Program-made: the position numbers and the translations under genes
In this document: piece after piece, positions 6,404-38,753 of the stretch
How positions within the stretch are numbered: position 1 is the stretch's first letter
How the letters are laid out: every line of letters begins with the position of its first letter
Notes under the pieces: generated by a model
Told to the model about the DNA's origin: nothing
Databases searched by the model: none
The model's input: the letters and a program-made list of their open reading frames with translations, nothing else
Source: an uncultured Spirochaetota bacterium
Lineage (GTDB): Bacteria; Spirochaetota; Spirochaetia; SZUA-6; Fen-1364
Direction of reading: 5' to 3'
Assembly (NCBI GenBank): GCA_963745235.1
Contig: CAVUXE010000048.1
Span: forward strand, 1-64,000
DNA: 64,000 bases

Positions 6404-6481
6404 TATTTCTCTCCAGAACGTTTACTGCTGGATGCGGCTTTCCCCTTGTGCAGCCTCCGTAAAAAGACTATGGTGCATCCG

Positions 6482-7765
6482 ATGAAACGTCGGGTCGTGA
6501 TCACCGGGATGGGAACTATCAATCCCCTCGGTGATTCCCTTGAAGCATACTATCAAAACCTCCTCAAAGGCACGTCGGGAATCCGCCGCTGGCATACCCT
6601 GGACATGAGCAAGATCGAGTGCAAAATCGGCGGAGATATCGGGGACTATGACTGCCTTGGCGCCCTTGGGCGCTATGAAGGCGTACTGGGGCCGGAAAAA
6701 TACAAGAAAGTCAGGAAAATCTTTCGCACCACCACTTTTTCGGCCAAAGCCTCGGTTCTTTGCACCCTTGCTGCCTGGCAGGACGCAGGCCTCTTCAAAT
6801 CAGGGGTTGATCCGTTCCGTACCTCAGTTATTGTAGGCGGGCACAACCTGAACTCGAACTACATTCACGAGAACTCCCGGCGCTTTCAGGAAGACGAGGA
6901 ATCAGTGGATCCCCTGAGCGGCGTGGAAGCAATAGACCCGAACGTGCCGGCGCTCATCACCGAGGTTTTGGGGCTCCATGGGCCTACGTTCACCATTGGA
7001 GGCGCGTGCGCCAGCGGGAACCTTGCTCTCCGCGAAGGCGTGAGGGACATCCAGAGCGGAGAATCGGATACAGCGGTGATTGCCGGGGGGCTTTTCGACA
7101 TGTCTCCCGGAGACATCCAGGCTTCCGTCATCATCAACGCGGTTGTGGTGAAACCTGAATACCAGGAGCATCCGGAGAAGGCCTCCCGCCCATTTGATGT
7201 ATCCCGCGCAGGCTTCGTCTACTCCCATGGAGCGGGGACGATGATGCTGGAAGACCTGGATCGAGCCCTGGCGCGTGGCGCACAGATCTATGGGGAAGTC
7301 CTGGGGGTGCGGGCCAACGCGAACGCATGCCACCTGCCTGCTCCCGCGGCGGACATCCAGGCACGCCTCATTGGAGATCTCCTGGCATCCACGGGGACAA
7401 AGCCGACTGAGGTCGACTACGCAAGCTGCCACGCCACGGGGACCCCCGGCGGAGACCTGGAAGAGATCAACGCGATCAAGACTGCCTTCGGGGACCACGC
7501 ATACAAGATGAAGTTGAACGCCGCCAAGTCCATGCTGGGCCACACGTGCTGGGCATCCCCAATCGTTGAAACCATCGCCGGCCTGCTGGAGATGAAGCAT
7601 GGGCGGCTCCATCCCACCATCAATGTCGACCGCCAGGACCCGCGGGTGGACCTGGATGTGTGCGCGGAAGGGCCCGTGGAGCACCGCATCCGCTACATGC
7701 TGAAGAACTCCTTCGGGTTCGGCGGCATCAACGCGTGCAGCCTGATTCGCCGCTACGAGGGGTAG
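6482..7765 (+). CDS. Beta-ketoacyl-ACP synthase, PksF-like free-standing KS with catalytic Cys retained
   Basis: RRVVITGMG, DPFRTSVIVGGHN, TIGGACASG, CHATGT, KSMLGH and NSFGFGG motifs. Confidence 0.9.
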   Translation: MKRRVVITGMGTINPLGDSLEAYYQNLLKGTSGIRRWHTLDMSKIECKIGGDIGDYDCLGALGRYEGVLGPEKYKKVRKIFRTTTFSAKASVLCTLAAWQDAGLFKSGVDPFRTSVIVGGHNLNSNYIHENSRRFQEDEESVDPLSGVEAIDPNVPALITEVLGLHGPTFTIGGACASGNLALREGVRDIQSGESDTAVIAGGLFDMSPGDIQASVIINAVVVKPEYQEHPEKASRPFDVSRAGFVYSHGAGTMMLEDLDRALARGAQIYGEVLGVRANANACHLPAPAADIQARLIGDLLASTGTKPTEVDYASCHATGTPGGDLEEINAIKTAFGDHAYKMKLNAAKSMLGHTCWASPIVETIAGLLEMKHGRLHPTINVDRQDPRVDLDVCAEGPVEHRIRYMLKNSFGFGGINACSLIRRYEG

Positions 7766-7768
7766 GGG

Positions 7769-8524
7769 ATGGGCAGCGACGGGGCAGCCGCATTCATCAC
7801 CGGCGGTTCGCGAGGGATTGGCAGGTCAATCGTCATTCGCCTGGTCAGGGAGGGAATTCCGACCGCATTCACCTGGGTCGGAAACGAAGAGGCAATGCGG
7901 GAAACGATGCGCCAGGCAGAGGCCGCGAATGCGGCGGCCAAAGTGCGCGCCTACCAGATGGACGTCAGGAACCCTGCTGACGTGGAGAGCGTCGCGGAGA
8001 AGGTCATGGAGGACTTTTCCGCGGTGGGTGTCGTCGTGAACAACGCGGGGGTCATCCGCAACAACGCGGCGGCCATGATGAGCGACGAGCAGTGGCAGGA
8101 CGTCATCGCAACTGACCTGTCGGGGCCGTTCTTCGTCATCCGCAGCTTCCTGGCTCACATGATGAGCAGGCGCTGGGGACGGATCATCAACATCTCCTCC
8201 CTTGCGCAGGAAGGCTCCAGCGGGCAGGCCAACTATGCGGCGGCCAAGGCCGGGCTCATCGGCCTCACCAAGACCCTGGCCCGAGAATACGCACCACGCG
8301 GCATCACCTCCAACGTCGTGACGGTGGGGTACGTGGAAACTGACATGACGGATGCGCATATGGCCCAGAAGCTGCACGACATCTGGCTGGAGTACTGTCC
8401 GGTCAAGCGGATCGGCACCGCGGATGAGATTTCCAGCCTCGTCAGGTACCTTGCCAGTGACGAAGCGGGATTCATAAACGGTGAGGTCATCCGCGTCGCA
8501 GGAGGACTCAGCTATGTTCCGTGA
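7769..8524 (+). CDS. fabG: 3-oxoacyl-ACP reductase (FabG-like SDR)
   Basis: TGGSRGIG, NNAG, GQANYAAAK (YxxxK). Confidence 0.85.
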   Translation: MGSDGAAAFITGGSRGIGRSIVIRLVREGIPTAFTWVGNEEAMRETMRQAEAANAAAKVRAYQMDVRNPADVESVAEKVMEDFSAVGVVVNNAGVIRNNAAAMMSDEQWQDVIATDLSGPFFVIRSFLAHMMSRRWGRIINISSLAQEGSSGQANYAAAKAGLIGLTKTLAREYAPRGITSNVVTVGYVETDMTDAHMAQKLHDIWLEYCPVKRIGTADEISSLVRYLASDEAGFINGEVIRVAGGLSYVP

Positions 8525-8533
8525 GGGAGCTCT

Positions 8534-9763
8534 ATGAGACCCATCGGTATCGAGAAGATCAACCTCTATGGATCTTCTCTTTTCCTTGACCAAAGGACGC
8601 TCGCGCTTGCGCGGGACCGTGACCCGCAGAAAGTGGTCGCTGATTTCCTGATCGACACCCGCTCGCTGAACCCGCTGTACGAGGACACCGTGACCATGGG
8701 CGCCAACGCGGCCGCCCCGCTCCTCACGGATGAGGACAGGAACGGCATCGGGTTTCTCGTTGTGGGAACGGAGAGCAGCGTAGATTTCGGGAAGCCTATC
8801 AGCACCAACATCCACGGCGCCCTGGGTCTTCCGTCGAACGTGCGCAACTTCGAGACCAAGCACGCCTGCTACAGCGGCGTGGCGGCCCTGGATGCGGCGT
8901 TGAACTGGCTTGCCGCCGGCCTGAACAAGGGCCGCAAGGCGCTCGTGATCTCCACGGACTTCTCGCGCATGCACCTGCACGCGAAGGAAGAGTTCGTCCT
9001 GGGCGGCGTCGCCGTTGCCATGCTCGTGAGCGATTCACCGAAGGTAGTGGAGTACGAGCTTGCCCGGAAAGGGACATGGACCACCGATGTGTACGACACG
9101 TTTCGCCCCAGCGCCCGCCACGAGATGGGCAACAACGAGGTAAGCCTGTACAGCTACCTGGATGCTCTGGAGGGCTCCTACAACGACTATGTCGCGGGAG
9201 ATAGCGGCGGCTCGGACTTCGACACTGCGTTCGCGCAAAACTGCTACCACACTCCCTTTCCCGGGATGGCCTTTCAGGCCCATCGCACCTTGTGCAACCT
9301 CGTGCGGCCTCGGTCCAAGGCTGAGATCCAGGAGAGCTTCACCCGAAAGGTGCTGCCCTCTCTGCGCTACGCGCGGCGCGTGGGGTCGACGTACGGGGCA
9401 AGCAATTTCCTGGGGATCTGCGGCATAGCGGCGTGCCCCAACGGCATCAGCCCGGGAGAGAGGATCAGCTTCTTCTCCTACGGCTCGGGTGCAATCGGGG
9501 AGTTCTACAGCGCAATCCTCTGCCCGGAAGCGAACAGCACGGTCTCGAAAATGGCCTTTGACGCCTCGCTGGACGACCGCCAGGAGGTGGACGTTGCAGA
9601 ATATGAAGAGATAGAGAAGCAGAGGGAGGCCTGGATAGAAAAGGACACCTACACTCCGGATTTCTCCCTTCCGGCCGGCTGGTACGACAAGCACTACCTC
9701 GGGAAGAAGAAGCTCGTTCTTCGCCAGGTCAAGGATTTCTATCGAACCTACGAATGGAGCTGA
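8534..9763 (+). CDS. HMG-ACP synthase (PksG-like beta-branching HCS)
   Basis: Catalytic E/C/H in GTESS, ETKHACYSG and YHTPF; FSYGSG; adjacent to two ECHs and an ACP. Confidence 0.88.
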   Translation: MRPIGIEKINLYGSSLFLDQRTLALARDRDPQKVVADFLIDTRSLNPLYEDTVTMGANAAAPLLTDEDRNGIGFLVVGTESSVDFGKPISTNIHGALGLPSNVRNFETKHACYSGVAALDAALNWLAAGLNKGRKALVISTDFSRMHLHAKEEFVLGGVAVAMLVSDSPKVVEYELARKGTWTTDVYDTFRPSARHEMGNNEVSLYSYLDALEGSYNDYVAGDSGGSDFDTAFAQNCYHTPFPGMAFQAHRTLCNLVRPRSKAEIQESFTRKVLPSLRYARRVGSTYGASNFLGICGIAACPNGISPGERISFFSYGSGAIGEFYSAILCPEANSTVSKMAFDASLDDRQEVDVAEYEEIEKQREAWIEKDTYTPDFSLPAGWYDKHYLGKKKLVLRQVKDFYRTYEWS

Positions 9764-9766
9764 GCC

Positions 9767-10612
9767 GTGGCAAAAGTGGAGCAGTACGTGGACTCCCAGG
9801 TGGCCGTGATCACCCTGAACGACGGTGAGAACGGCAACCTGCTCGGTCCCGAAAGCCTGGGGGAGCTCGCCGCGGCCGTGCATCGCTCAGAGTCGGACCA
9901 GGGGGTACGGGCAGTTCTCCTTCGCTCCAACGGTCCCTCGTTCTGCCTGGGCATGGATCTCGCTCGGCTCACGGGAGCAGCCGCGCCGACGGCCGAAGAA
10001 GAGGCACGCAGAGCAATCTCCCTGTACGCTGATACACTGATGGCCATTTTCTCGTCCCCGCTGCCCTTCGTCTGTCTGGTCCGCGGCGACGTGAAGGCCG
10101 GCGGGGTCGGGCTTGCCTGCGCGTGCGACATCGTGGTGGCAACGGCGGGAGCGACATTCGAGATGGCGGAGGTCCTCTTCGGACTGATCCCTGCCAACGT
10201 CCTGCCCTACCTTCTGACGCTCCGCATGCCGCCCCAGAAAGCGCGCTACCTCGTGATGAGCTCGAAGAAAGTGGAAAGCGATGAAGCCCTTCGGCTGAAC
10301 ATGGTGGACGAGCTCGTCTCAGAGGCCGATTTGGAATCTCGAGCTCGGGAGCTCCTCAAGCGGCTCCTGCGCTCTTCACCCCGTGCACTTTCGGAGGCGA
10401 AGGCCTTCACGGAACAGCTCCTGGGGAAGTCCCCGCGTGAGGGCGGGGCGCTCGCCCGCCAGAAACTGCTGGAGATGCTTCGCGATCAATCCGTGACCGC
10501 CGGCGTCAGCGCTTTCCGGGAGGGTGGAGTGCCCGCCTGGTTTGCGCGGTTTCGGCCCTCCGCTCCGCTGGCCCCGGGCAGCGGGTCCGAACGCCAGGAG
10601 GCGCGGCGGTGA
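9767..10612 (+). CDS. Enoyl-CoA hydratase-like ECH1 (PksH-like dehydratase)
   Basis: Crotonase fold FCLGMDL, AGGVGLACACDIV, EVLFGLIPANVLPYL. Confidence 0.85.
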   Translation: MAKVEQYVDSQVAVITLNDGENGNLLGPESLGELAAAVHRSESDQGVRAVLLRSNGPSFCLGMDLARLTGAAAPTAEEEARRAISLYADTLMAIFSSPLPFVCLVRGDVKAGGVGLACACDIVVATAGATFEMAEVLFGLIPANVLPYLLTLRMPPQKARYLVMSSKKVESDEALRLNMVDELVSEADLESRARELLKRLLRSSPRALSEAKAFTEQLLGKSPREGGALARQKLLEMLRDQSVTAGVSAFREGGVPAWFARFRPSAPLAPGSGSERQEARR

Positions 10613-11358
10613 GCGGCCGCATGAAAGTGCGCCATGAGCCTTCCGGAATCACAGTGCTCAAGATGGACGACCCGGAGGGCCGCAACGTCTTTTCCCACGG
10701 GTTTGTGGAGGAGTTTCTTTCCGCCCTCGGGAAGGTGGAGGAAGAAAACCGGACGAAAGTCCTGATTGTCCAGGGCAGGGAGGATGTTTTCTGCGGTGGC
10801 GCGGAGAAGCAGGCACTGCTGGACCTGTGCGACGGCAAAGCGGCCGTGATCGACCTTGTCATCAGCGAGCGTCTCCTGGAAGCTCCCTTCCCCGTGATAG
10901 CCGCCATGGAAGGGCACGGGATCGGAGGCGGGCTGGCGATGGCCTTGTGCTGCGACGTGGTCATTGCCGCGCGTGAGAGCCGTTACGGCGCGGTGTTCAT
11001 GAACATGGGCTTCACGCCCGGCATGGGCTGCACCACGCTGCTTGCAGAGCTGGTGGGGCCGTTCCTCGCCAGCGAGATGCTGTTCAGCGGCAAGAGATTT
11101 CGCGGCAGCGAGCTTGCCGGCCGGGCAACGAACATCAACTACATCCTGCCGCGCGGAGAAGTGCTGGCAAAGGCGAGGGACATCGCGGAGCAGATTGCGG
11201 AGAAGGACATCAGGTCCCTCTTCCTGCTGAAGCAGGCCTTGAGCGCAAAGAAGAAGAAGCTCCTGGTGGAAGCGCGCCTGCAGGAAGACCTCATGCACCG
11301 AATCAGCTTTGCGTTTCCCGAGACGCGGCGGACGATAGAAGAGCAGTATCCCGAGTAG
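10609..11358 (+). CDS. Enoyl-CoA hydratase-like ECH2 (PksI-like decarboxylase)
   Basis: PVIAAMEGHGIGGG, FMNMGFTPGMG, C-terminal MHRISF like PksI/CurF ECH2. Confidence 0.85.
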   Translation: MSGRMKVRHEPSGITVLKMDDPEGRNVFSHGFVEEFLSALGKVEEENRTKVLIVQGREDVFCGGAEKQALLDLCDGKAAVIDLVISERLLEAPFPVIAAMEGHGIGGGLAMALCCDVVIAARESRYGAVFMNMGFTPGMGCTTLLAELVGPFLASEMLFSGKRFRGSELAGRATNINYILPRGEVLAKARDIAEQIAEKDIRSLFLLKQALSAKKKKLLVEARLQEDLMHRISFAFPETRRTIEEQYPE

Positions 11359-11375
11359 GAAGGAGACATCCCGTC

Positions 11376-12215
11376 ATGGTCGGCGTGGATTTGCGGGGAA
11401 AGACCGCCCTCATCACCGGAGGCACCAAGGGGATTGGCCTGGCGTCCGCCCTGGCGCTTGCCCGCGCGGGGGCCCAGACTCTTCTGACCTATAAGTGGGG
11501 AAGCGCTGCAGGGGGCGCCCAGGGAAGCGCCGGCTTTGATGACGTGGCCGAGCTTTTCACCCAGGCCGGCGCGCTGCGCCCCGGTTTCTTCCAGGCGGAC
11601 GCGTCCCAGGAGGAAGACACGGAAAGGTTGATGGCAGAGCTTGCCGCCTCAACCGGGAAGATCGACATCTTCATCAGCAACGTGAGCTTCGCTCTTCGCA
11701 CGCAGACCCTGGATGACTACAAGAAGAGATCCCTGTTCAAGACCCTGGAATACAGCACGTGGCCCCTGGTGGACTACACGCGCCGCATCAAGGCCCGGTT
11801 CGGGAGCTATCCCCGGTATGTCCTGGGAATATCGAGTGACGGCCCGGATCACTATTACCGGGGATACGATTTCGTCGCCGCCTCCAAGGCGCTGCTGGAG
11901 TTCTTTTCCCGCTACCTGGCCGCGCACCTCTTCGAGGAGGGCTCTCGGGTCAACGTCCTGCGCTTCGGCACGGTGAATACCGAATCTTTTCGCGCGATAT
12001 TCGGGGAGCGGTTTTTCTCCTACATGAGGGAGAACGGTGTGCCCGAAGAGTCTCTGCTCACGCCGGAGGCCTGCGGCAACGCCGTGCTGGCCATGTGCAG
12101 CGGGCTCCTGGATGCCGTCAACGGCCAGATCATCAGCGTTGACTACGGGCTCCCCTTCAAGGATAATTCGATGATGAGATATTTATCGCAGGAAGGCGAA
12201 AGGAGCGTGCAATGA
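11376..12215 (+). CDS. Enoyl-ACP reductase-like SDR (FabI/FabL type)
   Basis: TGGTKGIG and Yx6K motif (YDFVAASK). Confidence 0.75.
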   Translation: MVGVDLRGKTALITGGTKGIGLASALALARAGAQTLLTYKWGSAAGGAQGSAGFDDVAELFTQAGALRPGFFQADASQEEDTERLMAELAASTGKIDIFISNVSFALRTQTLDDYKKRSLFKTLEYSTWPLVDYTRRIKARFGSYPRYVLGISSDGPDHYYRGYDFVAASKALLEFFSRYLAAHLFEEGSRVNVLRFGTVNTESFRAIFGERFFSYMRENGVPEESLLTPEACGNAVLAMCSGLLDAVNGQIISVDYGLPFKDNSMMRYLSQEGERSVQ

Positions 12216-12466
12216 CCAGGGAGCAGATCATGGACGTGATCAAGAAGAACATCGCCGCGAACATCGATGACATCGACGGCGCGACGATAGATCCGAAGAA
12301 GTCCATGAAGGATTACGGGGCAAACAGTCTGGACATGATCGAAGTGGTCTCCACCACAATGCGGGAGCTGAAGATCAAGGTGCCTCGCTCCGAGCTTACC
12401 GATATCAACAATATCGAGCAGCTCGCGGACAAGTTCATGGAATACGCGAACAAAGAAAATGGCTGA
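12212..12466 (+). CDS. Acyl carrier protein, AcpK-like donor ACP
   Basis: 84 aa with GANSLD phosphopantetheine site (GANS is typical of beta-branching donor ACPs). Confidence 0.85.
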   Translation: MTREQIMDVIKKNIAANIDDIDGATIDPKKSMKDYGANSLDMIEVVSTTMRELKIKVPRSELTDINNIEQLADKFMEYANKENG

Positions 12467-13717
12467 CAAGGCACTCAGTTTCAGTCTGGCGGATTTCTTC
12501 TTCAATGACAGCCCTGACGTCCTGACGCCACCCAGCGACTACCTCGCCTGGATCGAGCACCCGAAGATCCAGGCGGCCATGCACTTCTTCGGACAGCAGT
12601 TCCTGACGGCCCCGCGGGCGGAGGCCGAGGTCCTGAACGTTTCCGAGGGAGCACCGCGCAAGGTCATCAACATGACCTCGTACAATTACCTTGGCTTGTC
12701 CTCACACCCCGAGGTAATCCAGGCAGCCAAGGATGCGCTGGACCGCTATGGCCTGGGGGCCTCGGGCGCGCCGCTGCTCTCCGGCACCTTCGACCTGCAC
12801 GTGGAGTTCGCGCGCAGGCTCGCGGAGTTCAAGCAGAAGGAGGACTGCCTGCTGTACTCCAGCGGACTGGGGGGAACGTTGGCGCCATGCAGGGCCTCCT
12901 GCGAAAGGGAGATGTCCTGATCCTCGATGAGCGGTGCCACAAGAGCCTGATAGACGGCGGCACCCTCAGCGGGGCAAAGATGCTGTTCTTTTCGCACAAC
13001 GATCCCTCATCGCTGGAAGCCATGCTGGAAAAGAGCAAAGGCAAGCGCGTCCTGGTCGGCATGGAGGGGGTCTACTCCATGGACGGGGACCTCGCCCGCC
13101 TGCCGGAGATCGTGGAGCTGGCTGAGCACTACAAGGCGGCCACCTACCTCGACGAGGCGCACTCCACCCTGATGTTCGGCAAGAACGGACGGGGCGTTGC
13201 GGAGCACTTCGGGGTAGAAGAGCGGATCGGCGTGAGCTTCGGGACGTTCAGCAAGTCCTTCGGCGGCGTGGGAGGGTTCGTCTGCTCGAATGCAGCCATC
13301 ATCAACTACCTGAAGGGCTACTCGTCTCCCTGGAACTTCTCCTGCTCCCCGTCGCCCCCCGTGGTGGCGGGCCTCATGAAAGCCCTGGAGATCGCCACAC
13401 GCGACTCCAGTCTCCGGGACAAGCTCTGGGCCAACACGGCCTATCTCAGGAAGGGGCTGCTGGATCTGAAGCTCAACCTCGGACAGAGCGAATCCCAGGT
13501 CATTCCGATCATCATTGGGGCCTCCGGGGAGAAGCTCATGCATTTCGCCGCTGAGATCCAGAAGAGAGGCTTGTTCCTTCAGCCCGTTGACTTTCCGGCG
13601 GTTCCGGCGGATTCGCGGCGGTTTCGAATCTCCGTGTCGTCGCAGTTCACCAAGGACCTGATGGACCGGGCCCTGACGATCATCGAAGACGTGATCGCCA
13701 AGGGACTACGGGGATAG
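12459..13717 (+). CDS. PLP-dependent alpha-oxoamine synthase, serine palmitoyltransferase-like (frameshift in G-run near 12870)
   Basis: SYNYLGL, HKSLIDG, GVYSMDGD, DEAHS, GTFSKSFG; adding one G at 12869-12874 joins ORFs 12459-12920 and 12887-13717. Confidence 0.85.
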
Positions 13718-13756
13718 AGTCGTGCGCCTGCGCCGAAAGAATATTCCCGTCCATCC

Positions 13757-14285
13757 ATGTCTATGGACTACCAGGAGCTGCTGAAGCGCAACCGGAAAAA
13801 GCCGCTGGAAGCGTCCGGCGGCTTCACGCCTCTTGCGTGGGGCAGGCGGGAGATCCAGTTGATCCTGCCCCACCGGGAGCCCTTCCTCCTTGTTGACCGG
13901 CTCACCGGGGTCAACGTCGAGGCGGAATCCCTCCGCGGTCTTCGTTCTCTTTCCGCTGAGGACCCGGTCTTCGAAGGCCATTTCCCCGATTTTCCCGTCT
14001 ATCCGGGATGCCTCGAGGTGGAGATGATCGGCCAGCTCGGACTCTGCCTCAGCTACTTCCTGGAGAAGCGCACCACCGAACCGCCGTCGGAGATCGTCCC
14101 GCTGCGCGTGCGCGCCACGAGGATCCTTGGCGCATTGTACCTGGAGCCGGTGCTGCCCGGGCAAAACCGTGACCCTGCTGGCCCGGAAGCTGGACAACGA
14201 CGACTACTTCGCCAGCGTCATGGGACAGGTCATTGTAGATGACAAGGTTGCGTGCGTGGCCATCTGCGAGGTCTGCTTCCTCTGA
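13757..14285 (+). CDS. fabZ: 3-hydroxyacyl-ACP dehydratase, FabZ family (frameshift near 14160)
   Basis: LPHREPFLLVDR and FEGHFPDFPVYPG motifs; corrected frame ends ...VACVAICEVCFL-stop at 14285. Confidence 0.82.
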
Positions 14286-14327
14286 GGGCTCTCGCCCTCT
14301 CCGGCACGGCCCCCGACCTATGCCCCG

Positions 14328-15581
14328 CTAGCCGTCGAATCTCGAAAGCGCGATGGCGGCGTTCTCACCGCCGAAACCGAATCCGTTTGAGAGGACGTGG
14401 TTCACCCGGGCATCCCGCGGTTGATTGCGGACCACGTTCAGCGTGATCCGGGGGTCCTGCTCGAACTGATTGATGGTGGGATGGATGACGCCCTGCTGGA
14501 TAGCCTGGATGGCGGCAATTGCCTCCACGGCGCTTGCCGCACCCAGGGGATGCCCCGTCATGGATTTTGTGCTGTGCGCCGGAACGCCGTTGGCGCGGTC
14601 CTTGAACACCGAGGTGATGGCCTTGCTCTCCGCGAGGTCTCCCAGCGGCGTCGATGCGGCATGACAGTTGATCAGGTCGATCTGGTCCACGGTGAGCTTC
14701 GCTGCCTCCAGCGCTCCCTTCATGGCCTGCGCTGATCCACGGGATTCCGGATGCGGCGCCACCAGGTCATGAGCGTCGCTGGAAAAGCCGTACCCGGAGA
14801 GCTCCGCGTATATCCTGGCTCCCCGCTTGCGAGCGTGCTCCAGTTCCTCCAGGCACAGGACTCCGGCCCCTTCGCTCAGGACGAATCCGTCCCTGTCCTT
14901 GTCGAAGGGCCGAGAGGCGGTTTCCGGCGAGTTGTTGCGTTCCGAAAGCGCCATGATGTTCCCAAAGGCGGCAATGCCGCTGGGGAAGATGGGGGCCTCG
15001 GCGCCGCCGGTGAAGATGGCATCCGCCATTCCCATCTTGATGAGGGAAGCCGCAACGCCCAAGGCGTGGTTGCCCGTTGCGCAAGCGGAGTTCACTGAGA
15101 AACAGGGCCCCTGGAGGTTCCATTCCATCGCAAAGTAGCCGGAGGCAGTGCTGGGAATGCACATGACGAAGAAGGGCGATGATGACTGCATTCCGTCCTG
15201 GAGCATCTTGCGCGTGTTGTTGTACCGCGTTCCGATTCCCCCGTCACCGGTGCCGATGATCACGCCGTAGCGCTGCGGGGCTTTTTCCACGTCGAGCCCT
15301 GAATCCCGGATGGCCTGCGTTGCCGCGATCTGGGAAAGCACGACATAACGATCCAGCCTTTTGGCCATCTTGGTGTTTTTGAAGTACGTCCCGAGCTCCG
15401 GCAGATCTATTTCCCCGGCAATCTGCACTGAATAGCCGTCAATGGGGAACGCCTGCAGGCGGCGGACGCCTGACTTGCCGAGTATCAGATTATCCCAGAA
15501 CTCTCTGACGGTTGCGCCAATAGGGTTGATTGTTCCAAGTCCGGTGATGACGACTCGTACCTCTCGAGGATCCTTAGTCAT
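14328..15581 (-). CDS. fabF: Beta-ketoacyl-ACP synthase II
   Basis: NSACATG, NCHAASTPLGD, TKSMTGH, SRPFDKDRDGF, NGFGFGG. Confidence 0.9.
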   Translation of the reverse strand: MTKDPREVRVVITGLGTINPIGATVREFWDNLILGKSGVRRLQAFPIDGYSVQIAGEIDLPELGTYFKNTKMAKRLDRYVVLSQIAATQAIRDSGLDVEKAPQRYGVIIGTGDGGIGTRYNNTRKMLQDGMQSSSPFFVMCIPSTASGYFAMEWNLQGPCFSVNSACATGNHALGVAASLIKMGMADAIFTGGAEAPIFPSGIAAFGNIMALSERNNSPETASRPFDKDRDGFVLSEGAGVLCLEELEHARKRGARIYAELSGYGFSSDAHDLVAPHPESRGSAQAMKGALEAAKLTVDQIDLINCHAASTPLGDLAESKAITSVFKDRANGVPAHSTKSMTGHPLGAASAVEAIAAIQAIQQGVIHPTINQFEQDPRITLNVVRNQPRDARVNHVLSNGFGFGGENAAIALSRFDG

Positions 15582-15685
15582 TGTAGCCAAATTATTCCCT
15601 TCTTCTCTTTGACAATATCTTCAAATTATCAACCGTCACGGGGGCTGGTTGTCAAGGCGCCTCCGGGCCACTACCATGGCAGCCT

Positions 15686-16438
15686 ATGACCTCTGCCCAG
15701 GCGGCCTGGACAACCCCCTCGGGGCGGCCTTTCCTTCATCCAGGGGACGTCCACCTCTGGCTGGTGTCAGCGGAGAGCCCCCGGAAGGGATTGGAGTGCA
15801 TCCTGTCCCCCGAGGAGCTTCAACACAGTCTTCGCATGATCCGCCCGGCGGATCAGCGCCGCTACCTGGCAGTTCGCGGGGCACTTCGAGACATCCTTGG
15901 AAGGTATCTCCGCATCCCGCCGTCGACAATCAGTATAGCATATTCCGAGGCAGGGAAGCCGTTCCTGGACAACCAGCCCGACTCGAGCCAGGCCCTCCAT
16001 TTCAACGTCTCGCATGCCGGAGGCATTGCCTTGGTTGTTGTCAGCCGCGGTCTGCAGGTGGGGATAGATATTGAGCGTGTGCGTGAAATAAGGGCGGCAA
16101 GCGACATTCTCAGGGACTTTTTCAGCCCAGCGGAGCAAGCCTGGGTTCAATCTCTGCCTGATGAAGAGAAAACCCTGGAGTTCTTTCGCCTCTGGACGCG
16201 GCGGGAAGCCGCCTCCAAGGCGGTGGGGACAGCCTTGCTCAGATCTTTTCCGCTGTTCTCCCTGCCCGCCAGGCCGCTTTGCCCTGGCGGGTTCTGCGTG
16301 GCCCTGCCAAAGTCAGCGCAGGAAACGGCTGTTCAGGAGTGGTGGATGCGGGATCTCAGCCCTGCCCCGGGGCATGCTGGGGCCCTCTGCGTTGAAAACC
16401 AGAACTCCGAACCCTCCTTCTGGCGATTCTCCTGGTAA
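15686..16438 (+). CDS. Sfp-type 4'-phosphopantetheinyl transferase
   Basis: GKP, FNVSHA, VGIDIE and FFRLWTRREA motifs. Confidence 0.9.
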   Translation: MTSAQAAWTTPSGRPFLHPGDVHLWLVSAESPRKGLECILSPEELQHSLRMIRPADQRRYLAVRGALRDILGRYLRIPPSTISIAYSEAGKPFLDNQPDSSQALHFNVSHAGGIALVVVSRGLQVGIDIERVREIRAASDILRDFFSPAEQAWVQSLPDEEKTLEFFRLWTRREAASKAVGTALLRSFPLFSLPARPLCPGGFCVALPKSAQETAVQEWWMRDLSPAPGHAGALCVENQNSEPSFWRFSW

Positions 16439-16743: not shown

Positions 16744-18084
16744 TCAGCCCTCAGAAAACACGAAAAGCTCGAAGTCGAGGGAGCCGCGCCCGGAAAACGG
16801 TGCGCCTGTGGTCATCAGGGTAGCCTGCAGTGCTCTCCACCTGACCCGCCATCCCAATCCAACCGGCATGTTTTCTACCGGGACAGTGACTCGAAATCCT
16901 GTTTCCGCGGCCAGCCCGAATGAGTCGCGGCTTCCCAGCGGAACCGAGCTGGTCGCCAGGAGCGTTGAGAGCTGCTCGAAGGAGAAGAAAGGACCCACCC
17001 CCGCGTCAAGGTGAGCAAGGCCATCAGCGAAAGGCGCCCCGATCGATCCCCCTGCAGAATACTCCGCAAACATGGTGGCCGTTGCGTCGGGATGGTCGCT
17101 CGTGAACCAGCCCTGGGCAAAAGCAAGGAACCCTTCTTCGTGAACGCCATCCCTGCCGCCATGGAGCAGCGCCCCGAGGCGGACCCGCTGGGCCACGGAG
17201 GAGCCTGCTACGAGGCCGAGGTCGAGCGAGATGGGTCGGGAACCGTCAGGCGGCCGCGGGGATCCGAGCACAATGCCGAGGGATCCGTTTGTTTTCCGAC
17301 GCAGCGGAATGTCCTCGAAGGCAAGCGCAAGGAGACCGACGCGCATCTGGAACCCGAGGTACGGTCCGTTTTCAGCGGCGTCGACCGCCAGGAGAGTGGC
17401 GGGGGCGTCGCCGCCGACGACTCTCCACCCTCCGCTCATCGCAAGAAGGGCGTCTGGCCGGGAGTAGCGGAGGCCCGCAACGGCAAGGAGTGACCCTCGG
17501 GACGGAATAGATGCCCGCCCGGCCATCACGAGATAGGGGGAAAGGGAGCTCGCCGAGCTTATGGACAGCTTGAAAAAGCCCAGGGGAGCAGCCGCAAGCT
17601 CACTGCTGTAGCTCGTAGGGACAGGCCGATCCACGCCGGTTCCCGAATGAAGGCCCTCCTGGATGAGAAGGCCGCCAAGGTCCCCGGTGGCATCGATGCC
17701 GGCCCCTGCAAGGAGCTGCGCGGGCGCCGAGTCGAGCACGGAGACCGCGGCACCGAGTGAGGCTTGATCGAGCCGGTTTGCATCCGCGGCGGAATCGGTC
17801 CGATCTGTCAGACCGCTGATGGCGGAGAGCAGCCGAACAGGCCCCAGCGGGAGGCCAAGCCGCATTCCGAAGCTGTCAAGGTCGTCCCATTCATCAACCG
17901 GGCCGGGGCCGAAGGAATCGTTGGTCATGGAGACGAAGCCCGGGGCGTCCCAGCTTTCCGGCGAGGGTGACAGAAACGGATCAAGGGCGAGGGCGTACAG
18001 GTTCGCGGCGAAAAGGGTCATGGCTGCAGCGGCGGCCAGACGCAGTGGCCGTAAGGCTGCCGTGCTGCCAGCCCGCAACGTCAC
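16744..18084 (-). CDS. Hypothetical exported protein, possibly outer-membrane beta-barrel
   Basis: N-terminal signal peptide, Gly/aromatic-rich alternating strands; overlaps the stop of the upstream gene. Confidence 0.55.
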   Translation of the reverse strand: MTLRAGSTAALRPLRLAAAAAMTLFAANLYALALDPFLSPSPESWDAPGFVSMTNDSFGPGPVDEWDDLDSFGMRLGLPLGPVRLLSAISGLTDRTDSAADANRLDQASLGAAVSVLDSAPAQLLAGAGIDATGDLGGLLIQEGLHSGTGVDRPVPTSYSSELAAAPLGFFKLSISSASSLSPYLVMAGRASIPSRGSLLAVAGLRYSRPDALLAMSGGWRVVGGDAPATLLAVDAAENGPYLGFQMRVGLLALAFEDIPLRRKTNGSLGIVLGSPRPPDGSRPISLDLGLVAGSSVAQRVRLGALLHGGRDGVHEEGFLAFAQGWFTSDHPDATATMFAEYSAGGSIGAPFADGLAHLDAGVGPFFSFEQLSTLLATSSVPLGSRDSFGLAAETGFRVTVPVENMPVGLGWRVRWRALQATLMTTGAPFSGRGSLDFELFVFSEG

Positions 18085-19169
18085 CTTTCCGCGGTCCCAA
18101 CCGGGATGGCCGCCCGCGGCCCGCCGTTGCCTTTCCTTCCAAGAAGTCCGAACACGAACCCGTCGAACAGGAGGAGGAGATAGTAGGTGGCCAACCTCCA
18201 GACAAAGACCGCAATGACCGTCGAGCCAACGGCGCCCGTCAGGCCGGAGTACACCAGGGAGAAGGCGCCCTCAACGCCCCCGCTTGCACCGGGGGTGGGA
18301 ATGTAGAAAACGACCTGCCAGAGGATCACGTAGGTGATGATCACCTCGAGGAACGGGAGCGTTGTGCCGGTCACACCTTCCAGCACGAACAGCAGGGAAT
18401 AGGCGTGCAGGAGGATGTTGCACGCGCCCATGAGGATGTCCAGGACCATGGCCCATGTCTTCTCGGACCAGAGCATCCGAACGTTCTCACGCAGCCTGTG
18501 AGACCACTTATGCAGGCTCGGCGCCCAGTTGTGCCTCCCGCTGATTCGGCCAATGAGGCGCCCCAGGAAAGTCCGCTCCAGGACAATTGCGAGGCGGCCG
18601 ACGACGTGCGGCCGGATGAGGAGGACCAGCAGAAGCACGGTCATGCACAGCGAGATGCCCAGCGCTACGTACATGAGCCTTGCCCCCATGCGCAGGGAGG
18701 AGGCAACCCACGATATCTGCGTGAGGAACAGAAGCGAGATGAGGAGCGACGTCATGGCTTGTTCCACGAACCGGGACATGATGATGTTGGTCGACGTCTC
18801 TGCCGGAACGCCCACCACGCTCAGGTGGTAGATCTGGAAGGGCTGACCGCCGGCCGTCATGGGCGTGATGTTCGTGAAAAAACTGCCCACGGCGCTGTTG
18901 TAGAAGGCCTGCACGAACGTGATGCGGATTCGGAACTGCGCCAGGACGAGCTTCAACCGCAGCGAATCCACCACCTGGGAAGCCATGAAGAGGAGAAGCG
19001 GGACGACGAAGTAGATCAGCCTCACCTTGCGGATGGAATCAATGATCTGGGTCCGGTCCATCAGGAGGGAGAGGATGGTATTGACGCCCAGACCCAGGAT
19101 GACGGCAAGGAGAACGAACCGCAGGATTCGGCGGAGGCTTGACTTGTCCCGGAAATCGAAACCGAGCAT
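18081..19169 (-). CDS. Lysylphosphatidylglycerol synthase TM / flippase-like membrane protein (UPF0104)
   Basis: FTNITPMTAGGQP, PTPGASGGVEG, VWRLATYY; ATG at 19169 overlaps the upstream TAA. Confidence 0.85.
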   Translation of the reverse strand: MLGFDFRDKSSLRRILRFVLLAVILGLGVNTILSLLMDRTQIIDSIRKVRLIYFVVPLLLFMASQVVDSLRLKLVLAQFRIRITFVQAFYNSAVGSFFTNITPMTAGGQPFQIYHLSVVGVPAETSTNIIMSRFVEQAMTSLLISLLFLTQISWVASSLRMGARLMYVALGISLCMTVLLLVLLIRPHVVGRLAIVLERTFLGRLIGRISGRHNWAPSLHKWSHRLRENVRMLWSEKTWAMVLDILMGACNILLHAYSLLFVLEGVTGTTLPFLEVIITYVILWQVVFYIPTPGASGGVEGAFSLVYSGLTGAVGSTVIAVFVWRLATYYLLLLFDGFVFGLLGRKGNGGPRAAIPVGTAER

Positions 19170-20284
19170 TATCCGAGGGATTTCACGATGGCAGCGGCGA
19201 TGGCCTCCGCGCCGTTCTGGGGGCCGACCTGCTGCAGCCGCTCCATGACATCCCGGCAGCTTGAGCGGTCTTTCGCCATCAGCGCTATCTGCTGCACGAA
19301 CTGGCGCGGCCGTGGGCAGAACCATCCGTAGCCGTTGTCCACGATGAAACGCATGTTCTCACGCTCGTTGGGCGCGCCAATGTGGGTCACGATCAGGGGG
19401 ATGCCCTTCTTCATTGCCATCATGGCATACCCCGTCCCGCATTTGCCGGCCAGGACGTCTGCCGCCGCCACGATCCCGCTGATGTCCTCCTGGTACCCCA
19501 TGGGAATCACCTTCGGACTGGAGAAACGCTTCGAAAGCAGGCGCAGCAACTGGTCGTTTCGACCGGTCAGCACAAGGAGCGTGGCCCCCTCCACCCCGCG
19601 GATGAATGCATCCACGAAGCGCATGGAGTGACCGATCCCCTCACCGCCGAGGCTGAGGATGACCAGCAGGTCCCTCTCCGGCACCCCAAGGCGTTTCTTG
19701 AAGACCTCCCGCGGCGCTCCGTTGGCGAGCAGGTGGGGATGCACCACCATGGGAACGCGATGCAGTTTCTCCTGAGCCACCCCGATGCGGCGCAGGCCTT
19801 CCTCGATGCGCGGCGTCAGCGTGAAGTACAGATCAGCGCCGCAATTGATGACTCCATAGGTGGCTCCGAGCTCACCGTAGATGTAGAACAGGGGAGGGGC
19901 CTGCGTGCCCCGCGCCAGGGAAAACAGGTGCGAGCATGCCCAATGGGTGGACATGATGAGGTCAGGCTGGTAGGAGGCAAGATACTCCGCGGCCTTGGGA
20001 ACGGCGGTGCGAAACCCCCGCCGGTTGAGCCTGTTGACCAGGCGGGGCGCCAGGCGCTCCAGCGCAAAAAGGAACTGGGACACGAACGCCGGCATCTTGA
20101 GAAAGACTCTCCACAGGTCCTCGAAGGTCTTCTTCATGAGGGCGTCGTCCAGGTCACGGGCCGCATCCATGATGCGGATATCCCAGGACGGGCGCATCTC
20201 GCGCACGTAGTGGGCTATGGCCTGGGCCAGCACGAGGTGGCCGAGCCCGGCGGACAGATAGGTCATGAGGATCTTTTTTCTCAT
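19169..20284 (-). CDS. MGDG synthase/UgtP-like GT28 glycosyltransferase
   Basis: SAGLGH, PDLIMSTH, LSLGGEG, TGRN, GPNERENMRF. Confidence 0.82.
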   Translation of the reverse strand: MRKKILMTYLSAGLGHLVLAQAIAHYVREMRPSWDIRIMDAARDLDDALMKKTFEDLWRVFLKMPAFVSQFLFALERLAPRLVNRLNRRGFRTAVPKAAEYLASYQPDLIMSTHWACSHLFSLARGTQAPPLFYIYGELGATYGVINCGADLYFTLTPRIEEGLRRIGVAQEKLHRVPMVVHPHLLANGAPREVFKKRLGVPERDLLVILSLGGEGIGHSMRFVDAFIRGVEGATLLVLTGRNDQLLRLLSKRFSSPKVIPMGYQEDISGIVAAADVLAGKCGTGYAMMAMKKGIPLIVTHIGAPNERENMRFIVDNGYGWFCPRPRQFVQQIALMAKDRSSCRDVMERLQQVGPQNGAEAIAAAIVKSLG

Positions 20285-20309
20285 CGAGGCAGCTCCGTTC
20301 TGAGTTTCA

Positions 20310-21065
20310 TTACGCAGTTTCCCTTCCGAGCCGCTGCTTGCGCACGCGGCCACGGTAGGCGATGCAGTCGTTCAGGATTCCGACCAGCGCGTGGTGAAAG
20401 AGCACATACAGGAATGAGCCTGTGATAGCGGTGATGCTCCCGGCAATGACGCCGAGGATGAACGCCCCCAGGACTTCCGAGTTGGGGTGGCCGATGTGGT
20501 AGATGGTGGACAGGAACGTGGAGACCATCACCACCACGACAAGACAGGGAACCGTGTGGGGGAGCAGAGCCAGGAGTGAAAAGAGAATGACCCCTCTGAA
20601 GGTAAACTCCCAGGGGAGGTAATACAGGACCAGGTACGCCGACTCATAGAGGATGAAGCGGGCCGGGCCTGACATGGCTTCCTTGGAGAACGGGTAATGC
20701 TCCCGCAGGGCCGGGTCCCGCAGGCCGAAGAACAGCCCCAGCAGTGACAAAGGCAGGAGCGCAACGGTAAGGATCAGGCCCAACCTCCAGTTGCCCAGCC
20801 CCAGCCCCGCGGACCAGGGGGAGAGCCCGACCGGCCCACCGCGCAGAATGACCACCGTCAGCGGAACGAGAAAGAAGAAGACGAAGACACACACGAAATA
20901 GGTCATCACCGGCCTGAAGTCGCTACTCGCGTCCCGCACGAGGTTGCGGATATTGAGCACCGATGAGAGCAGCAGGAACGAGATCCCGAGGGCGCTGAAG
21001 AGAACGGCGTAAGGATCCGCGAGGATGGAGACCGCTGTCGCTGCCGCAGACGTGAGCCATTGCAT
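20310..21065 (-). CDS. CPBP/Abi family intramembrane metalloprotease
   Basis: WEFTFRG, YHIGHP, HHALVG motifs; multiple TM helices. Confidence 0.8.
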   Translation of the reverse strand: MQWLTSAAATAVSILADPYAVLFSALGISFLLLSSVLNIRNLVRDASSDFRPVMTYFVCVFVFFFLVPLTVVILRGGPVGLSPWSAGLGLGNWRLGLILTVALLPLSLLGLFFGLRDPALREHYPFSKEAMSGPARFILYESAYLVLYYLPWEFTFRGVILFSLLALLPHTVPCLVVVVMVSTFLSTIYHIGHPNSEVLGAFILGVIAGSITAITGSFLYVLFHHALVGILNDCIAYRGRVRKQRLGRETA

Positions 21066-21071
21066 GCTTTT

Positions 21072-22091
21072 CTACCTCCCTCGCGACTTGTTCAAATACC
21101 CCGAGGCTTTTTCCCTGGCATACCATTCCATGATGGACTCGAGCTGGCGATCCAGGTCCTGGTCCGGCTGGTAGCCGAGCTCCGCTATTGTCCGGGAGAT
21201 GTCGTAGCTCGTGTCCTTCCCGATCTTGCTCACACGATACCAGGTCAGCAGCGCCTCGTAGGACGGGAAGATCGCATGGAGGACCTGCATGAAAGCGGCA
21301 AGGGCGTAAGCCACGGCAACCGGCACGAAGATACGCTGCTGCCTGCCCAACCGCAGCTGGAAGAAGCCCATCAGCTGCCGCCACGTGACGTCCTGCCCGT
21401 TTGCAACGGTGTACGCAGATCCGTCCTTTCCGCGCATCTGGCAGGCAAGGTGACACGCCTTGGCGAGGTTGCCCACGTAGCAGAAGCTCAGGATCCGGTT
21501 CCCCGTCCCCGCAAGGGTAGGCCAACCGGACTCGATGCCGTCAAGGATTCTCAGGCTCGAGGTCCGGTCATTCGGGCCGAAGACATCGGTGGGCCGCAGG
21601 ATGACCACTGGCAGCCCTTTTTCCATGAACCTGTCCAGGAGGAACTGCTCCGTCATCTCCTTCGCCCGGGTATAGGAAAGGTTCCCATAGGGGGGTTTCC
21701 CGGGATTCTGCTCGGAAATGTTCACAGACCTGTGCCCCAGGACGAGCCCCGTCGAAATGTAGATGAACCGCCGGACAGGGATCTTGTTATCCTCCAGGGA
21801 CTGCACCAGGTTCACCGTTGTGTCCAGGATGTTTTGCCGCGCCTTCGCCATTGAAACGTCATCAAGCACCAGCGACGCGGCGTGGATGACATAGTCGATG
21901 GACGACGGCAGGTCCACGCGGCTGGTCTTTGCCAGGTCCCCCCTGATCAGATTGACCGGAGCTCCCTCCAGGAAATGCAGGTCCGAGGTCTCACGCACGA
22001 GCCCGAAAACTTCGTAGGAGCGTTCAAGAAAGTACGAGCACAGGTTTGAGCCGATGAACCCGTTCGCCCCCGTGATCAGGACCCGTTCCAT
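21072..22091 (-). CDS. NAD-dependent epimerase/dehydratase (extended SDR, 3-beta-HSD-like)
   Basis: TGANGFIG, YTRAK, ILRPTDVFGP. Confidence 0.85.
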   Translation of the reverse strand: MERVLITGANGFIGSNLCSYFLERSYEVFGLVRETSDLHFLEGAPVNLIRGDLAKTSRVDLPSSIDYVIHAASLVLDDVSMAKARQNILDTTVNLVQSLEDNKIPVRRFIYISTGLVLGHRSVNISEQNPGKPPYGNLSYTRAKEMTEQFLLDRFMEKGLPVVILRPTDVFGPNDRTSSLRILDGIESGWPTLAGTGNRILSFCYVGNLAKACHLACQMRGKDGSAYTVANGQDVTWRQLMGFFQLRLGRQQRIFVPVAVAYALAAFMQVLHAIFPSYEALLTWYRVSKIGKDTSYDISRTIAELGYQPDQDLDRQLESIMEWYAREKASGYLNKSRGR

Positions 22092-22184
22092 CTCTTCCCC
22101 TTGCGAGATCTCCACTGACCGCTGTGCACACGACGATAGCGAAACATCGCAATAACTTCCATAGGCGCGGCGGCGCGAAGACCC

Positions 22185-38746: not shown

Positions 38747-38753
38747 GAAGGTT

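Follow-up and report, generated by a model that had tools for sequence, protein, structure and literature searches.

A candidate pathway to methyl-branched, long-chain-base-like lipids in Spirochaetota: a beta-branching cassette among type II fatty acid synthase genes, coupled to an alpha-oxoamine synthase

We analyzed a cluster of eleven genes located at positions 6446–16438 on contig CAVUXE010000048.1, which belongs to a metagenome-assembled genome (MAG) of an uncultured Spirochaetota bacterium; "the window" below means the whole 64,000-nt stretch of this contig that was analyzed, and the coordinates refer to it. The cluster unites a beta-branching cassette of the kind known from polyketide synthases (PKSs) with enzymes of type II fatty acid synthase (FAS) and an alpha-oxoamine synthase (AOS) resembling serine palmitoyltransferase (SPT). 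It probably encodes a self-contained, FAS-like line bound to an acyl carrier protein (ACP), which makes a methyl-branched acyl chain and releases it by means of AOS as an amino ketone similar to a long-chain base. We infer the product, the position of the branch and the amino acid.

Organization of the gene cluster

The genes were identified from a listing of open reading frames (ORFs) and by Pfam and NCBIfam profile searches. Nine of them form a plus-strand operon encoding, in this order, a ketosynthase (KS; KS1), 3-oxoacyl-ACP reductase (KR), ACP-dependent 3-hydroxy-3-methylglutaryl (HMG) synthase (HCS), the crotonase-fold enzymes ECH1 and ECH2, enoyl-ACP reductase (ER), a dedicated ACP, AOS, and a FabZ-type dehydratase. 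A convergent gene of a FabF-type KS and a gene of an Sfp-type phosphopantetheinyl transferase (PPTase) follow. Intergenic distances in the plus-strand operon ranged from −8 to +39 nt. The ACP gene overlapped the stop codon of the ER gene by 4 nt and the start of the AOS gene by 8 nt, suggesting one translationally coupled operon. No thioesterase was found between positions 6446 and 16438 by ORF and profile searches; AOS was the sole release enzyme there.

The type II FAS set of the cluster comprised a discrete KS with the Cys-His-His triad, KR, FabZ-type dehydratase, FabI-type ER, and ACP. All of these enzymes scored below the cut-offs of the housekeeping equivalog models and thus appear to be paralogues of the primary FAS enzymes. 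An acyltransferase (AT) was absent from the cluster in the genus to which the window belongs, while in five other spirochete loci (L015, L022–L025) it preceded KS1. The preliminary description of this DNA had listed the same eleven genes in the same arrangement; all of them were present and received support at the family level. It had overlooked the frameshifts in the AOS and FabZ genes, the fact that the cassette KS has an intact active site, and the presence in the genome of three additional AOS paralogues.

Beta-branching enzymes and ketosynthase KS1

The top PDB matches of HCS extended over its full length (residues 1–408) and belonged to VirC (8s81, 261 bits), CurD (253 bits), and PksG (224 bits), with HMG-CoA synthases reaching 207 bits at most. 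The triad Glu80, Cys112, His239 was kept in 18/18 sequences. Judging by these matches, HCS is an enzyme of the ACP-dependent polyketide class. ECH2 exceeded the cut-off of the PksI-type model NF005496 (Table 1), and its top PDB matches were PksI (145 bits) and CurF (135 bits); generic crotonases gave no more than 93 bits. ECH1 scored 133 bits with NF005498 (cut-off 250); its top PDB match was an isohexenylglutaconyl-CoA hydratase-like protein (4zu2), and PksH (3hp0) was found lower, with 82 bits.

The best structural matches of ER were FabI (1ulu) and other FabI and FabL entries; its YDFVAASK stretch aligned to the Y-x6-K motif of FabI, which marks enoyl reductases. The intact FabZ orthologue from another genome of the genus (G006) matched FabZ structures. 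The top model of the dedicated ACP was the AcpK-type NF005502, with a score under the cut-off (Table 1). The ACP motif DYGANSLDMIEVVS was nearly invariant in 18 orthologues. There was no Trp after the Ser; Trp in this place is a flag of beta-branch acceptor ACPs.

KS1 scored 311 bits with the PksF-type model NF005490 (cut-off 445) and 299 bits with the FabF model, and shared 35% identity with FabF of the cluster. In canonical cassettes, the stand-alone KS is condensation-incompetent and only decarboxylates malonyl-ACP to acetyl-ACP, as described in PMC11522927. KS1 departs from this type in its intact triad Cys188-His329-His366, identified by alignment to Thermus FabF; Cys-His-His was kept in all 19 aligned sequences, namely the window, 14 Spirochaetota, 3 Myxococcota, and 1 alphaproteobacterial locus (one more locus, L044, gave no aligned residues). 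Based on these residues, KS1 is regarded as a cassette-type KS which should be able to perform condensation. A spirochete of the same order, G032, encoded a separate, canonical-looking cassette with the arrangement ACP-KS-...-HCS (L018:10350–14528). The KS of that cassette was co-linear with KS1, nearly gap-free in the alignment and 32% identical, and carried GGASASGN at the place of GGACASGN in KS1, with Ser substituted for the active-site Cys. The clusters of Nannocystaceae described below contain only one KS, yet retain KR, FabZ, and two ERs; it follows that this KS must serve at least one ordinary cycle in addition to the branching cycle.

HCS, ECH1, ECH2, and the AcpK-like ACP make up the canonical set with which trans-acting cassettes assist modular PKSs, and a partner PKS of this kind could be encoded elsewhere in the genome, the more so as the MAG is incomplete and a canonical-looking cassette does occur in G032. 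We consider this explanation very improbable. The MAG (5.85 Mb, 104 contigs, 85.7% completeness, 5.9% contamination) contained seven KS-domain matches, all in frames of at most 453 aa, four small ACPs, and a single AT domain, that of FabD next to the housekeeping FabF. The remaining KS and ACP genes stood alone and adjoined unrelated functions, and no KAsynt_C_assoc-type module was found in the annotated KS loci of the MAG. Thus the partner type I PKS, for which the preliminary description had advised to look, was found neither in the window nor in the rest of this MAG, 85.7% complete. Furthermore, KS1 retains the Cys, and the cassette was always set among FAS-type genes and AOS, in two phyla.

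Alpha-oxoamine synthase and its relatives

The top PDB match of AOS was SPT of Sphingobacterium multivorum (3a2b/8guh, 2e-78), ahead of BioF/Kbl-type and Kbl enzymes. Residues His161, Ser207, Asp232, Ala234, His235, Thr263, and Lys266 of AOS aligned to His138, Ser185, Asp210, Ala212, His213, Thr241, and Lys244 of SPT, and these residues of the pyridoxal phosphate (PLP) site were invariant in the AOS alignment (A1). Their roles in binding of the cofactor and substrate in the S. multivorum enzyme are given in PMC10196870. AOS scored below every curated equivalog cut-off: those of three SPT, two Kbl, BioF, 5-aminolevulinate synthase, and CqsA-type models. The clade to which it belongs is marked by the GASGAP loop and by a conserved stretch of about 60 aa that extends the N-terminus. 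The representatives of the family obtained by clustering at 50% shared 65, 57, 47, 46, and then 42% identity with AOS, and this quick fall characterizes AOS as a member of a tight family. Fusions among the relatives included ACP-AOS, AOS joined to a fatty acyl-AMP ligase (FAAL) and ACP (FAAL-ACP-AOS), AOS-AT, and AOS-GNAT. Three relatives, an AOS-acyltransferase (P0128), an AOS-GNAT (P0143), and a PilZ-AOS-FemAB-like protein (P0133), hint at the partners of the enzyme family.

The BioF/Kbl subfamily model was among the top NCBIfam matches of AOS (351 bits), and AOS could be a housekeeping BioF or Kbl placed in the operon by chance. This is hardly credible. The scores of AOS were below the cut-offs for BioF (325 vs. 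426 bits) and for both Kbl models (330 vs. 460 and 285 vs. 493 bits). The MAG encoded a true Kbl on contig C73 (619 bits, cut-off 493), adjoining Tdh; in the same 85.7% complete MAG, the best match to BioB gave 85 bits with a cut-off of 225, and BioD had no match. The overlap of the ACP and AOS genes and the linkage of AOS to the cassette, both conserved across phyla, also argue against a chance neighbor. Both identities, raised in the preliminary description as possible objections, were rejected on these grounds, as was a CqsA/LqsA autoinducer synthase (185 bits, cut-off 428).

Relatives of AOS provided functional hints. In Bradymonadales and a related Myxococcota MAG (58–61% AOS identity), KS1 and the cassette are replaced by a FAAL-ACP-KS protein, while KR, ER, ACP, AOS, and FabZ are kept. 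In L030:4595–11781, as well as in L031, this protein includes KAsynt_C_assoc and stands ahead of KR, ER, ACP, AOS, and FabZ, and the HCS cassette is missing. By its domains, this variant would clearly load a pre-formed fatty acid, extend and reduce it, and hand it to AOS. In 22 Verrucomicrobiota loci (L036–L079, e.g., L061:8805–11820; 43–47% AOS identity), AOS lies beside Lipid_DES/FA_desaturase and/or FA_hydroxylase genes, and the desaturase carries the N-terminal domain of sphingolipid delta4-desaturases. These loci come from MAGs of Chthoniobacterales and of Udaeobacter-type soil bacteria; their gene content predicts the synthesis of sphingolipids by these abundant soil bacteria.

A maximum-likelihood tree of 89 AOS sequences was built with a quick IQ-TREE run with SH-aLRT support only; L088 and L095, whose matched stretches did not reach 380 residues, were dropped. 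The enzymes of spirochetes and Bradymonadales grouped together (SH-aLRT 93), as did those of Nannocystaceae and Verrucomicrobiota (SH-aLRT 99), and both groups were placed within one clade of 53 rows (SH-aLRT 98), apart from homologues of Gemmatimonadota, Acidobacteriota, and Bacteroidota and from the three other AOS paralogues of the MAG; the three outgroups are on long branches and the root is uncertain. The desaturase- and hydroxylase-linked enzymes of Verrucomicrobiota thus nest in the clade of the cassette AOS, which supports the SPT-like reading. The earlier assignment of AOS as SPT-like held in the structural match and in the position in the tree; by its scores, AOS nevertheless falls short of the curated SPT families.

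Serine is the likeliest amino acid for AOS, though unproven. Prediction of the amino-acid specificity from active-site residues was abandoned, since the contacts with serine are mostly water-mediated (PMC10196870) and residue swaps were ineffective (PMC13692747).

Distribution of the cluster

HCS was used as a query over 40 relatives. Clear orthologues, with 61–88% identity, were present in 11 of the 20 other genomes of the genus, in 0/4 from other genera of the family, and in 4/16 from the remaining families of the order. Within the genus, nine genomes lacked the cluster; three of them are 90–96% complete, which indicates that the cluster is accessory. The order KS-KR-HCS-ECH1-ECH2-ER-ACP-AOS-FabZ/FabF/PPTase was identical in nine of the ten loci of relatives. 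The tenth was that of G032 (L018), left out as a non-orthologue, as it represents a different cassette with 37% identity.

The AOS alignment was also searched against a collection in which 185,579 species are represented by one genome apiece, and the best 80 loci were kept. The full set was found beside AOS in 11 of these 80 loci, seven from Spirochaetota and four from Myxococcota. The former, of which two were cut by contig ends, included a Brevinematales MAG and the spirochete endosymbiont of Olavius algarvensis; the latter were Nannocystis radixulma, N. pusilla, and two MAGs. Linkage of AOS to the cassette in Spirochaetota and Myxococcota, which had been proposed as a check in the preliminary description, is thus conserved. 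AOS homologues labelled as Spirochaetia, Spirochaetales, or Spirochaetaceae MAGs were among the loci, and in one of the Spirochaetia loci (L028) AOS was present without the cluster.

Gene order in Nannocystaceae was AOS-AT-FabZ-KS-KR-HCS-ECH1-ECH2-ER-ER-ACP, with an in-cluster acyltransferase; no second KS was found within 15 kb beyond the cluster. Identity between the spirochete and Nannocystis proteins was 42–53% for eight of the nine common genes and 33% for ECH1, which suggests that the cluster was inherited or transferred as a unit. FabF adjoined FabZ in all spirochete loci reaching that far, and PPTase (27–64% identity) followed FabF in most of the spirochete loci.

Proposed pathway

According to the pathway that we propose, PPTase would activate the dedicated ACP, and loading of malonyl would fall to housekeeping FabD in this genus and to the AT of the cluster in lineages that have one. 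KS1 would decarboxylate malonyl-ACP to acetyl-ACP and perform condensation to a beta-ketoacyl-ACP, most simply acetoacetyl-ACP. HCS would put an acetyl unit on the beta-keto group, yielding HMG-ACP; dehydration by ECH1, decarboxylation by ECH2, and saturation by the FabI-type ER would leave a beta-methyl group. With acetoacetyl-ACP as the HCS acceptor, the result would be isovaleryl-ACP, an iso-primer, to be elongated in ordinary cycles by FabF, KR, FabZ, and ER. AOS would then catalyze a decarboxylative Claisen condensation of the acyl-ACP and a small amino acid, offloading the chain as a branched 2-amino-3-ketone, an analogue of 3-ketosphinganine that would feed a membrane lipid. The role of AOS in release is suggested by the lack of a thioesterase in the cluster and by translational coupling of AOS to the ACP gene. 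The iso-primer mechanism via HMG-ACP is a tentative part of the scheme, with a chance somewhat short of even; HCS specificity for acetoacetyl-ACP is the simplest means by which an iterative system could yield one defined product.

It is possible, although unlikely, that the branch is introduced late. A ready-made acyl chain from primary FAS would be extended on the dedicated ACP by KS1 or FabF, passing through one HCS/ECH1/ECH2/ER cycle and another KR/FabZ/ER cycle. The acyl chain would then bear a 3-methyl branch, and the methyl of the base would lie close to the head group, around C5 or C7, instead of forming the iso terminus. The Bradymonadales variant starts from a pre-formed fatty acid with FAAL-ACP-KS and a single KR/FabZ/ER set, the spirochete clusters contain exactly two KSs, and the closest structure to ECH1 (4zu2) is a hydratase of a glutaconyl-CoA with a long substituent; all this agrees with late branching. 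However, the single KS of the Nannocystaceae clusters must iterate anyway, with KR and FabZ kept, and neither FAAL nor an acyl-ACP synthetase was found in the spirochete or Nannocystis clusters. In addition, HCS scored VirC and CurD above PksG, and the substrate of CurD is acetoacetyl-ACP.

Repeated action of the HCS cassette in the course of iterative elongation on the dedicated ACP, which would produce a poly-methyl-branched acyl chain mimicking isoprenoids and converted to a sphingoid base by AOS, is quite improbable. If true, it would mean a hybrid polyketide-sphingolipid class of membrane lipids formed without mevalonate or methylerythritol phosphate pathways or methylation by S-adenosylmethionine (SAM), common to soil and peat spirochetes, a symbiont of a gutless worm, and Nannocystis.

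Neighboring genes and other lipid genes of the MAG

The features of the cluster and of the adjacent block are listed in Table 1.

Table 1. Genes of the cluster and the neighboring block in the window
Feature	Coordinates	Strand	Evidence and remarks
KS1	6446..7765	+	PF00109/PF02801; alternative ATG starts at 6470 and 6482
FabG-type 3-oxoacyl-ACP reductase (KR)	7769..8524	+	adh_short_C2, 183 bits; TIGR01830, 243 bits (cut-off 297)
ACP-dependent HMG synthase (HCS)	8534..9763	+	HMG_CoA_synt N and C domains; PDB matches
ECH1, crotonase-fold dehydratase	9767..10612	+	ECH_1, 141 bits
ECH2, crotonase-fold decarboxylase	10609..11358	+	NF005496, 269 bits (cut-off 215)
FabI/FabL-type enoyl-ACP reductase of the short-chain dehydrogenase/reductase (SDR) family (ER)	11376..12215	+	adh_short_C2; FabI/FabL PDB matches
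Dedicated ACP (AcpK-like)	12212..12466	+	PP-binding; NF005502, 62 bits (cut-off 79)
Alpha-oxoamine synthase (AOS), SPT-like, about 419 aa	12459..13717	+	Two ORFs in the window; PDB match to SPT
FabZ-type dehydratase with N-terminal extension of about 30 aa	13757..14285	+	FabA/FabZ N-terminal match only in the window
FabF-type elongating KS, convergent with the operon	14328..15590	-	KS N and C domains; Cys-His-His motifs in the translation
Sfp-type phosphopantetheinyl transferase, divergent from FabF	15686..16438	+	ACPS and AASDHPPT_N
Putative lipid-tailoring operon (association inferred)	16744..22115	-	Pfam/NCBIfam

The putative lipid-tailoring block on the minus strand encoded an unknown 446-aa protein, a flippase-like LPG_synthase_TM protein (TIGR00374 above the cut-off), a glycosyltransferase similar to monogalactosyldiacylglycerol and diglucosyl-diacylglycerol synthases, a CPBP protease, and an extended SDR. 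The best models of the latter were OleD, a reductase of long-chain 3-oxo-lipids, and HpnA, both with scores far under the cut-offs. The block was syntenic in three genomes of the genus (G006, G007, and G015). An independent spirochete lineage (L024) had the same trio (flippase-like protein, extended SDR, CPBP protease) after the cluster and a GNAT gene upstream of it; a GNAT gene was also present upstream in L023, and in L022 a CDP-alcohol phosphatidyltransferase and a flippase-like protein were encoded after the cluster. The flippase-like proteins, glycosyl- or phosphotransferases, and OleD-like reductase may complete and export the lipid. ORFs without a Pfam or NCBIfam match were located, in a conserved position, at the end of the cluster both in the window (446 aa, 16744–18084) and in Nannocystis radixulma (423 aa, L033:19717–20988).

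The bacterial ceramide pathway consists of Spt, the N-acyltransferase bCerS, and the NDUFA9-like reductase CerR, as stated in PMC11087976. The resemblance of the neighborhood to this Spt-bCerS-CerR pathway, seen at the level of gene families, is suggestive.

The cluster could also produce a diffusible metabolite or signal of small or medium size: a branched alpha-aminoketone, an alpha-hydroxyketone of the CqsA/LqsA kind, a pyrazine, or a pyrrole. This alternative is improbable. It would fit the patchy, accessory distribution in the genus, the presence of the Sfp-type PPTase and HCS cassette, which are hallmarks of secondary metabolism, the lack of an identified ceramide synthase in the operon, and the presence of other SPT-like enzymes in the genome. 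Against it stand the low score of AOS with the autoinducer-synthase model given above and the nearest AOS relatives, which adjoin FAAL or sphingolipid-desaturase and hydroxylase genes. The complete KR, dehydratase, ER, and FabF set argues for long saturated chains, and genes of flippase-like proteins and head-group transferases recur as neighbors.

Besides AOS of the cluster, the MAG contained three further AOS genes, the true Kbl on C73 being one of them. Another paralogue, the fourth AOS, was encoded on contig C35 (L102:4164–5363, minus strand) beside accA, and its best model was the CFB-type SPT (491 bits, cut-off 640); the organism may make ordinary sphingolipids too. On contig C53 (L103:2677–6114), cysteate synthase was followed by AOS and by an SDR with a 3-ketodihydrosphingosine-reductase-like match. 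The cysteate synthase (TIGR03844, 329 bits, cut-off 325) was split into two ORFs by a frameshift. By gene content, this trio looks like a capnine-type sulfonolipid set in a spirochete; sulfonolipids are known from Bacteroidota. On contig C45 (L105:2176–5191), genes of an AMP-binding enzyme, an ACP, and a B12-binding radical SAM protein were found in a row, which could be a tailoring set for a lipid or natural product.

Housekeeping genes of the window encoded SMC (24206–27094), TrmD (31354–32292), and AcpP followed by RNase III (acpP-rnc, 38525–39569). Since these genes share the window with the cluster, the latter is located in the core chromosome.

Frameshifts and traces of expression

In the window, AOS was represented by two ORFs, 12459–12920 (153 aa) and 12887–13717 (276 aa), the break resulting from one G lacking in the G-run at 12869–12874. 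The FabZ gene contained one surplus G at 14159–14161, by which the C-terminus was lost; the true C-terminus was readable in another frame. Metagenome contigs from all three DNA runs (three studies) had a G inserted after position 12868, and in both runs covering position 14159 (2/2) there was one base fewer than in the assembly. One DNA run may be the source sample of the MAG, and its contigs still disagreed with the assembly. The mapped runs are assembled contigs, in which depth and uncovered stretches carry no meaning. The relatives had a single AOS ORF of 418–420 aa (419 aa in the intact orthologue of G006) and a full FabZ. As the breaks were absent from independent contigs and from the relatives, we regard them as artefacts of the assembly or strain. 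Both genes were treated as intact; the intact orthologues of G006 were analyzed, and the sequence of the window was left unrepaired.

Other genes of the same MAG were split in the same way: the cysteate synthase gene on C53, KS genes on C58 and C44, and an HMG-CoA synthase-like gene on C97. Single-base homopolymer frameshifts of this kind mean that annotations of the assembly will over-call pseudogenes.

Near-identical DNA was found in soil, peat, and wetland metagenomes. Two short contigs of a peat metatranscriptome mapped on AOS and FabZ, a weak indication that the cluster is possibly expressed in peat.

Evaluation of the pathway and comparison with known systems

Several observations weigh against a line that makes long-chain bases. 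AOS scored below all three curated SPT cut-offs (321 vs. 640, 274 vs. 500, and 234 vs. 670 bits), its loop reads GASGAPLLSG while that of S. multivorum SPT reads GCAGSRFLNG, and, according to PMC13692747, conversion of a cysteate enzyme to a serine enzyme failed by first-shell and loop swaps. Going by its best model, the single ACP of the cluster resembles donor ACPs of the AcpK type. Profile searches, among whose models there was none for bCerS, revealed no ceramide synthase in the cluster. The accessory distribution is also typical of secondary metabolism, and a third long-chain-base enzyme is not obviously needed in an organism with the SPT-like AOS of C35 and the cysteate-linked AOS of C53. 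The absence of a PKS is not proven, as the MAG is only 86% complete with 5.9% contamination. The chain length of the HCS acceptor, and hence the position of the branch, is hypothetical, as is the product.

The cassettes of PKSs, such as PksF/G/H/I-AcpK of bacillaene, CurB-F of curacin, and VirC of virginiamycin M, share with the cluster the ACP-dependent HCS triad, ECH2, and a cassette-type KS, and probably also the ECH1 dehydratase and the AcpK-like small ACP, and the same conversion of a beta-keto to a beta-methyl group is expected. They differ in the KS, which is condensation-incompetent in PKS cassettes (PMC11522927) and keeps Cys-His-His in 19/19 sequences of the cluster type. Furthermore, the cluster is set among type II FAS genes and ends in AOS, and no modular PKS acceptor was found for it in the MAG.

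With the bacterial SPT and the Spt-bCerS-CerR systems of Caulobacter, Sphingomonas, Bacteroides, and Sphingobacterium, the cluster shares a fold-type I PLP-dependent AOS with conserved PLP-site residues, as well as an extended-SDR reductase and a flippase-like gene nearby; Spt is known to accept acyl-ACP as the donor (PMC11087976). In contrast to these systems, AOS of the cluster is below the three SPT cut-offs, forms its own clade, and is tied to a branching cassette and a FAS of its own, and no bCerS homologue was identified.

In the capnine/sulfonolipid pathway (cysteate synthase, cysteate fatty acyltransferase, 3-ketocapnine reductase), the long-chain base likewise arises from an acyl thioester through the action of an AOS. 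AOS of the cluster differs in having no cysteate synthase neighbor; it is about 35% identical to its paralogue, and the C53 enzyme is a distant outgroup in the tree.

Myxococcus xanthus possesses an alternative, leucine-independent pathway to isovaleryl-CoA (MvaS, LiuC, AibA/B, AibC), in which an HMG thioester is converted via 3-methylglutaconyl and 3-methylcrotonyl to isovaleryl. The logic is similar to that proposed here. The M. xanthus route is CoA-bound and employs a glutaconate-CoA-transferase-like decarboxylase, whereas the route encoded by the cluster would be ACP-bound, would use ECH2 as the decarboxylase, and would be wired to AOS. In undecylprodigiosin biosynthesis, a dedicated type II FAS-like set (RedP/Q/R) feeds acyl-ACP to the AOS-type PLP enzyme RedL, and the FAAL-ACP-AOS fusions similarly deliver acyl-ACP to such an enzyme. 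These systems, however, have no beta-branching cassette, and their AOS is either one domain within a larger synthase or a member of another clade.

All parts of the cluster come from known families. In the full-text literature, whose coverage leaves most subscription journals outside, we found no description of a combination of an HCS cassette, type II FAS, and an SPT-like AOS, including a Cys-bearing cassette KS and a private FAS. In the accessible portions of the same literature, there was no report of sphingolipid synthesis in spirochetes and nothing relevant on sphingolipids of Nannocystis. Rather than a new principle, the cluster represents an orphan lipid pathway that is well supported, widespread, and open to experiment, with a KS that is unusual in its enzymology. 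As the entire set is present in cultured species of Nannocystis, the cluster is directly testable.

If our reading is true, a beta-branching cassette of the antibiotic type has been rewired into lipid metabolism, so that neither SAM nor primers derived from branched-chain amino acids would be needed to make branched sphingoid-type lipids. The Cys-bearing cassette KS would represent a natural example of a decarboxylating KS in which the ability to condense was retained or regained. The same cluster is carried by an animal symbiont, the Olavius algarvensis spirochete endosymbiont. The known bacterial producers of sphingolipid-like compounds would extend to Spirochaetota, and the methyl-branched lipids of peat and soil would have a new biosynthetic origin.

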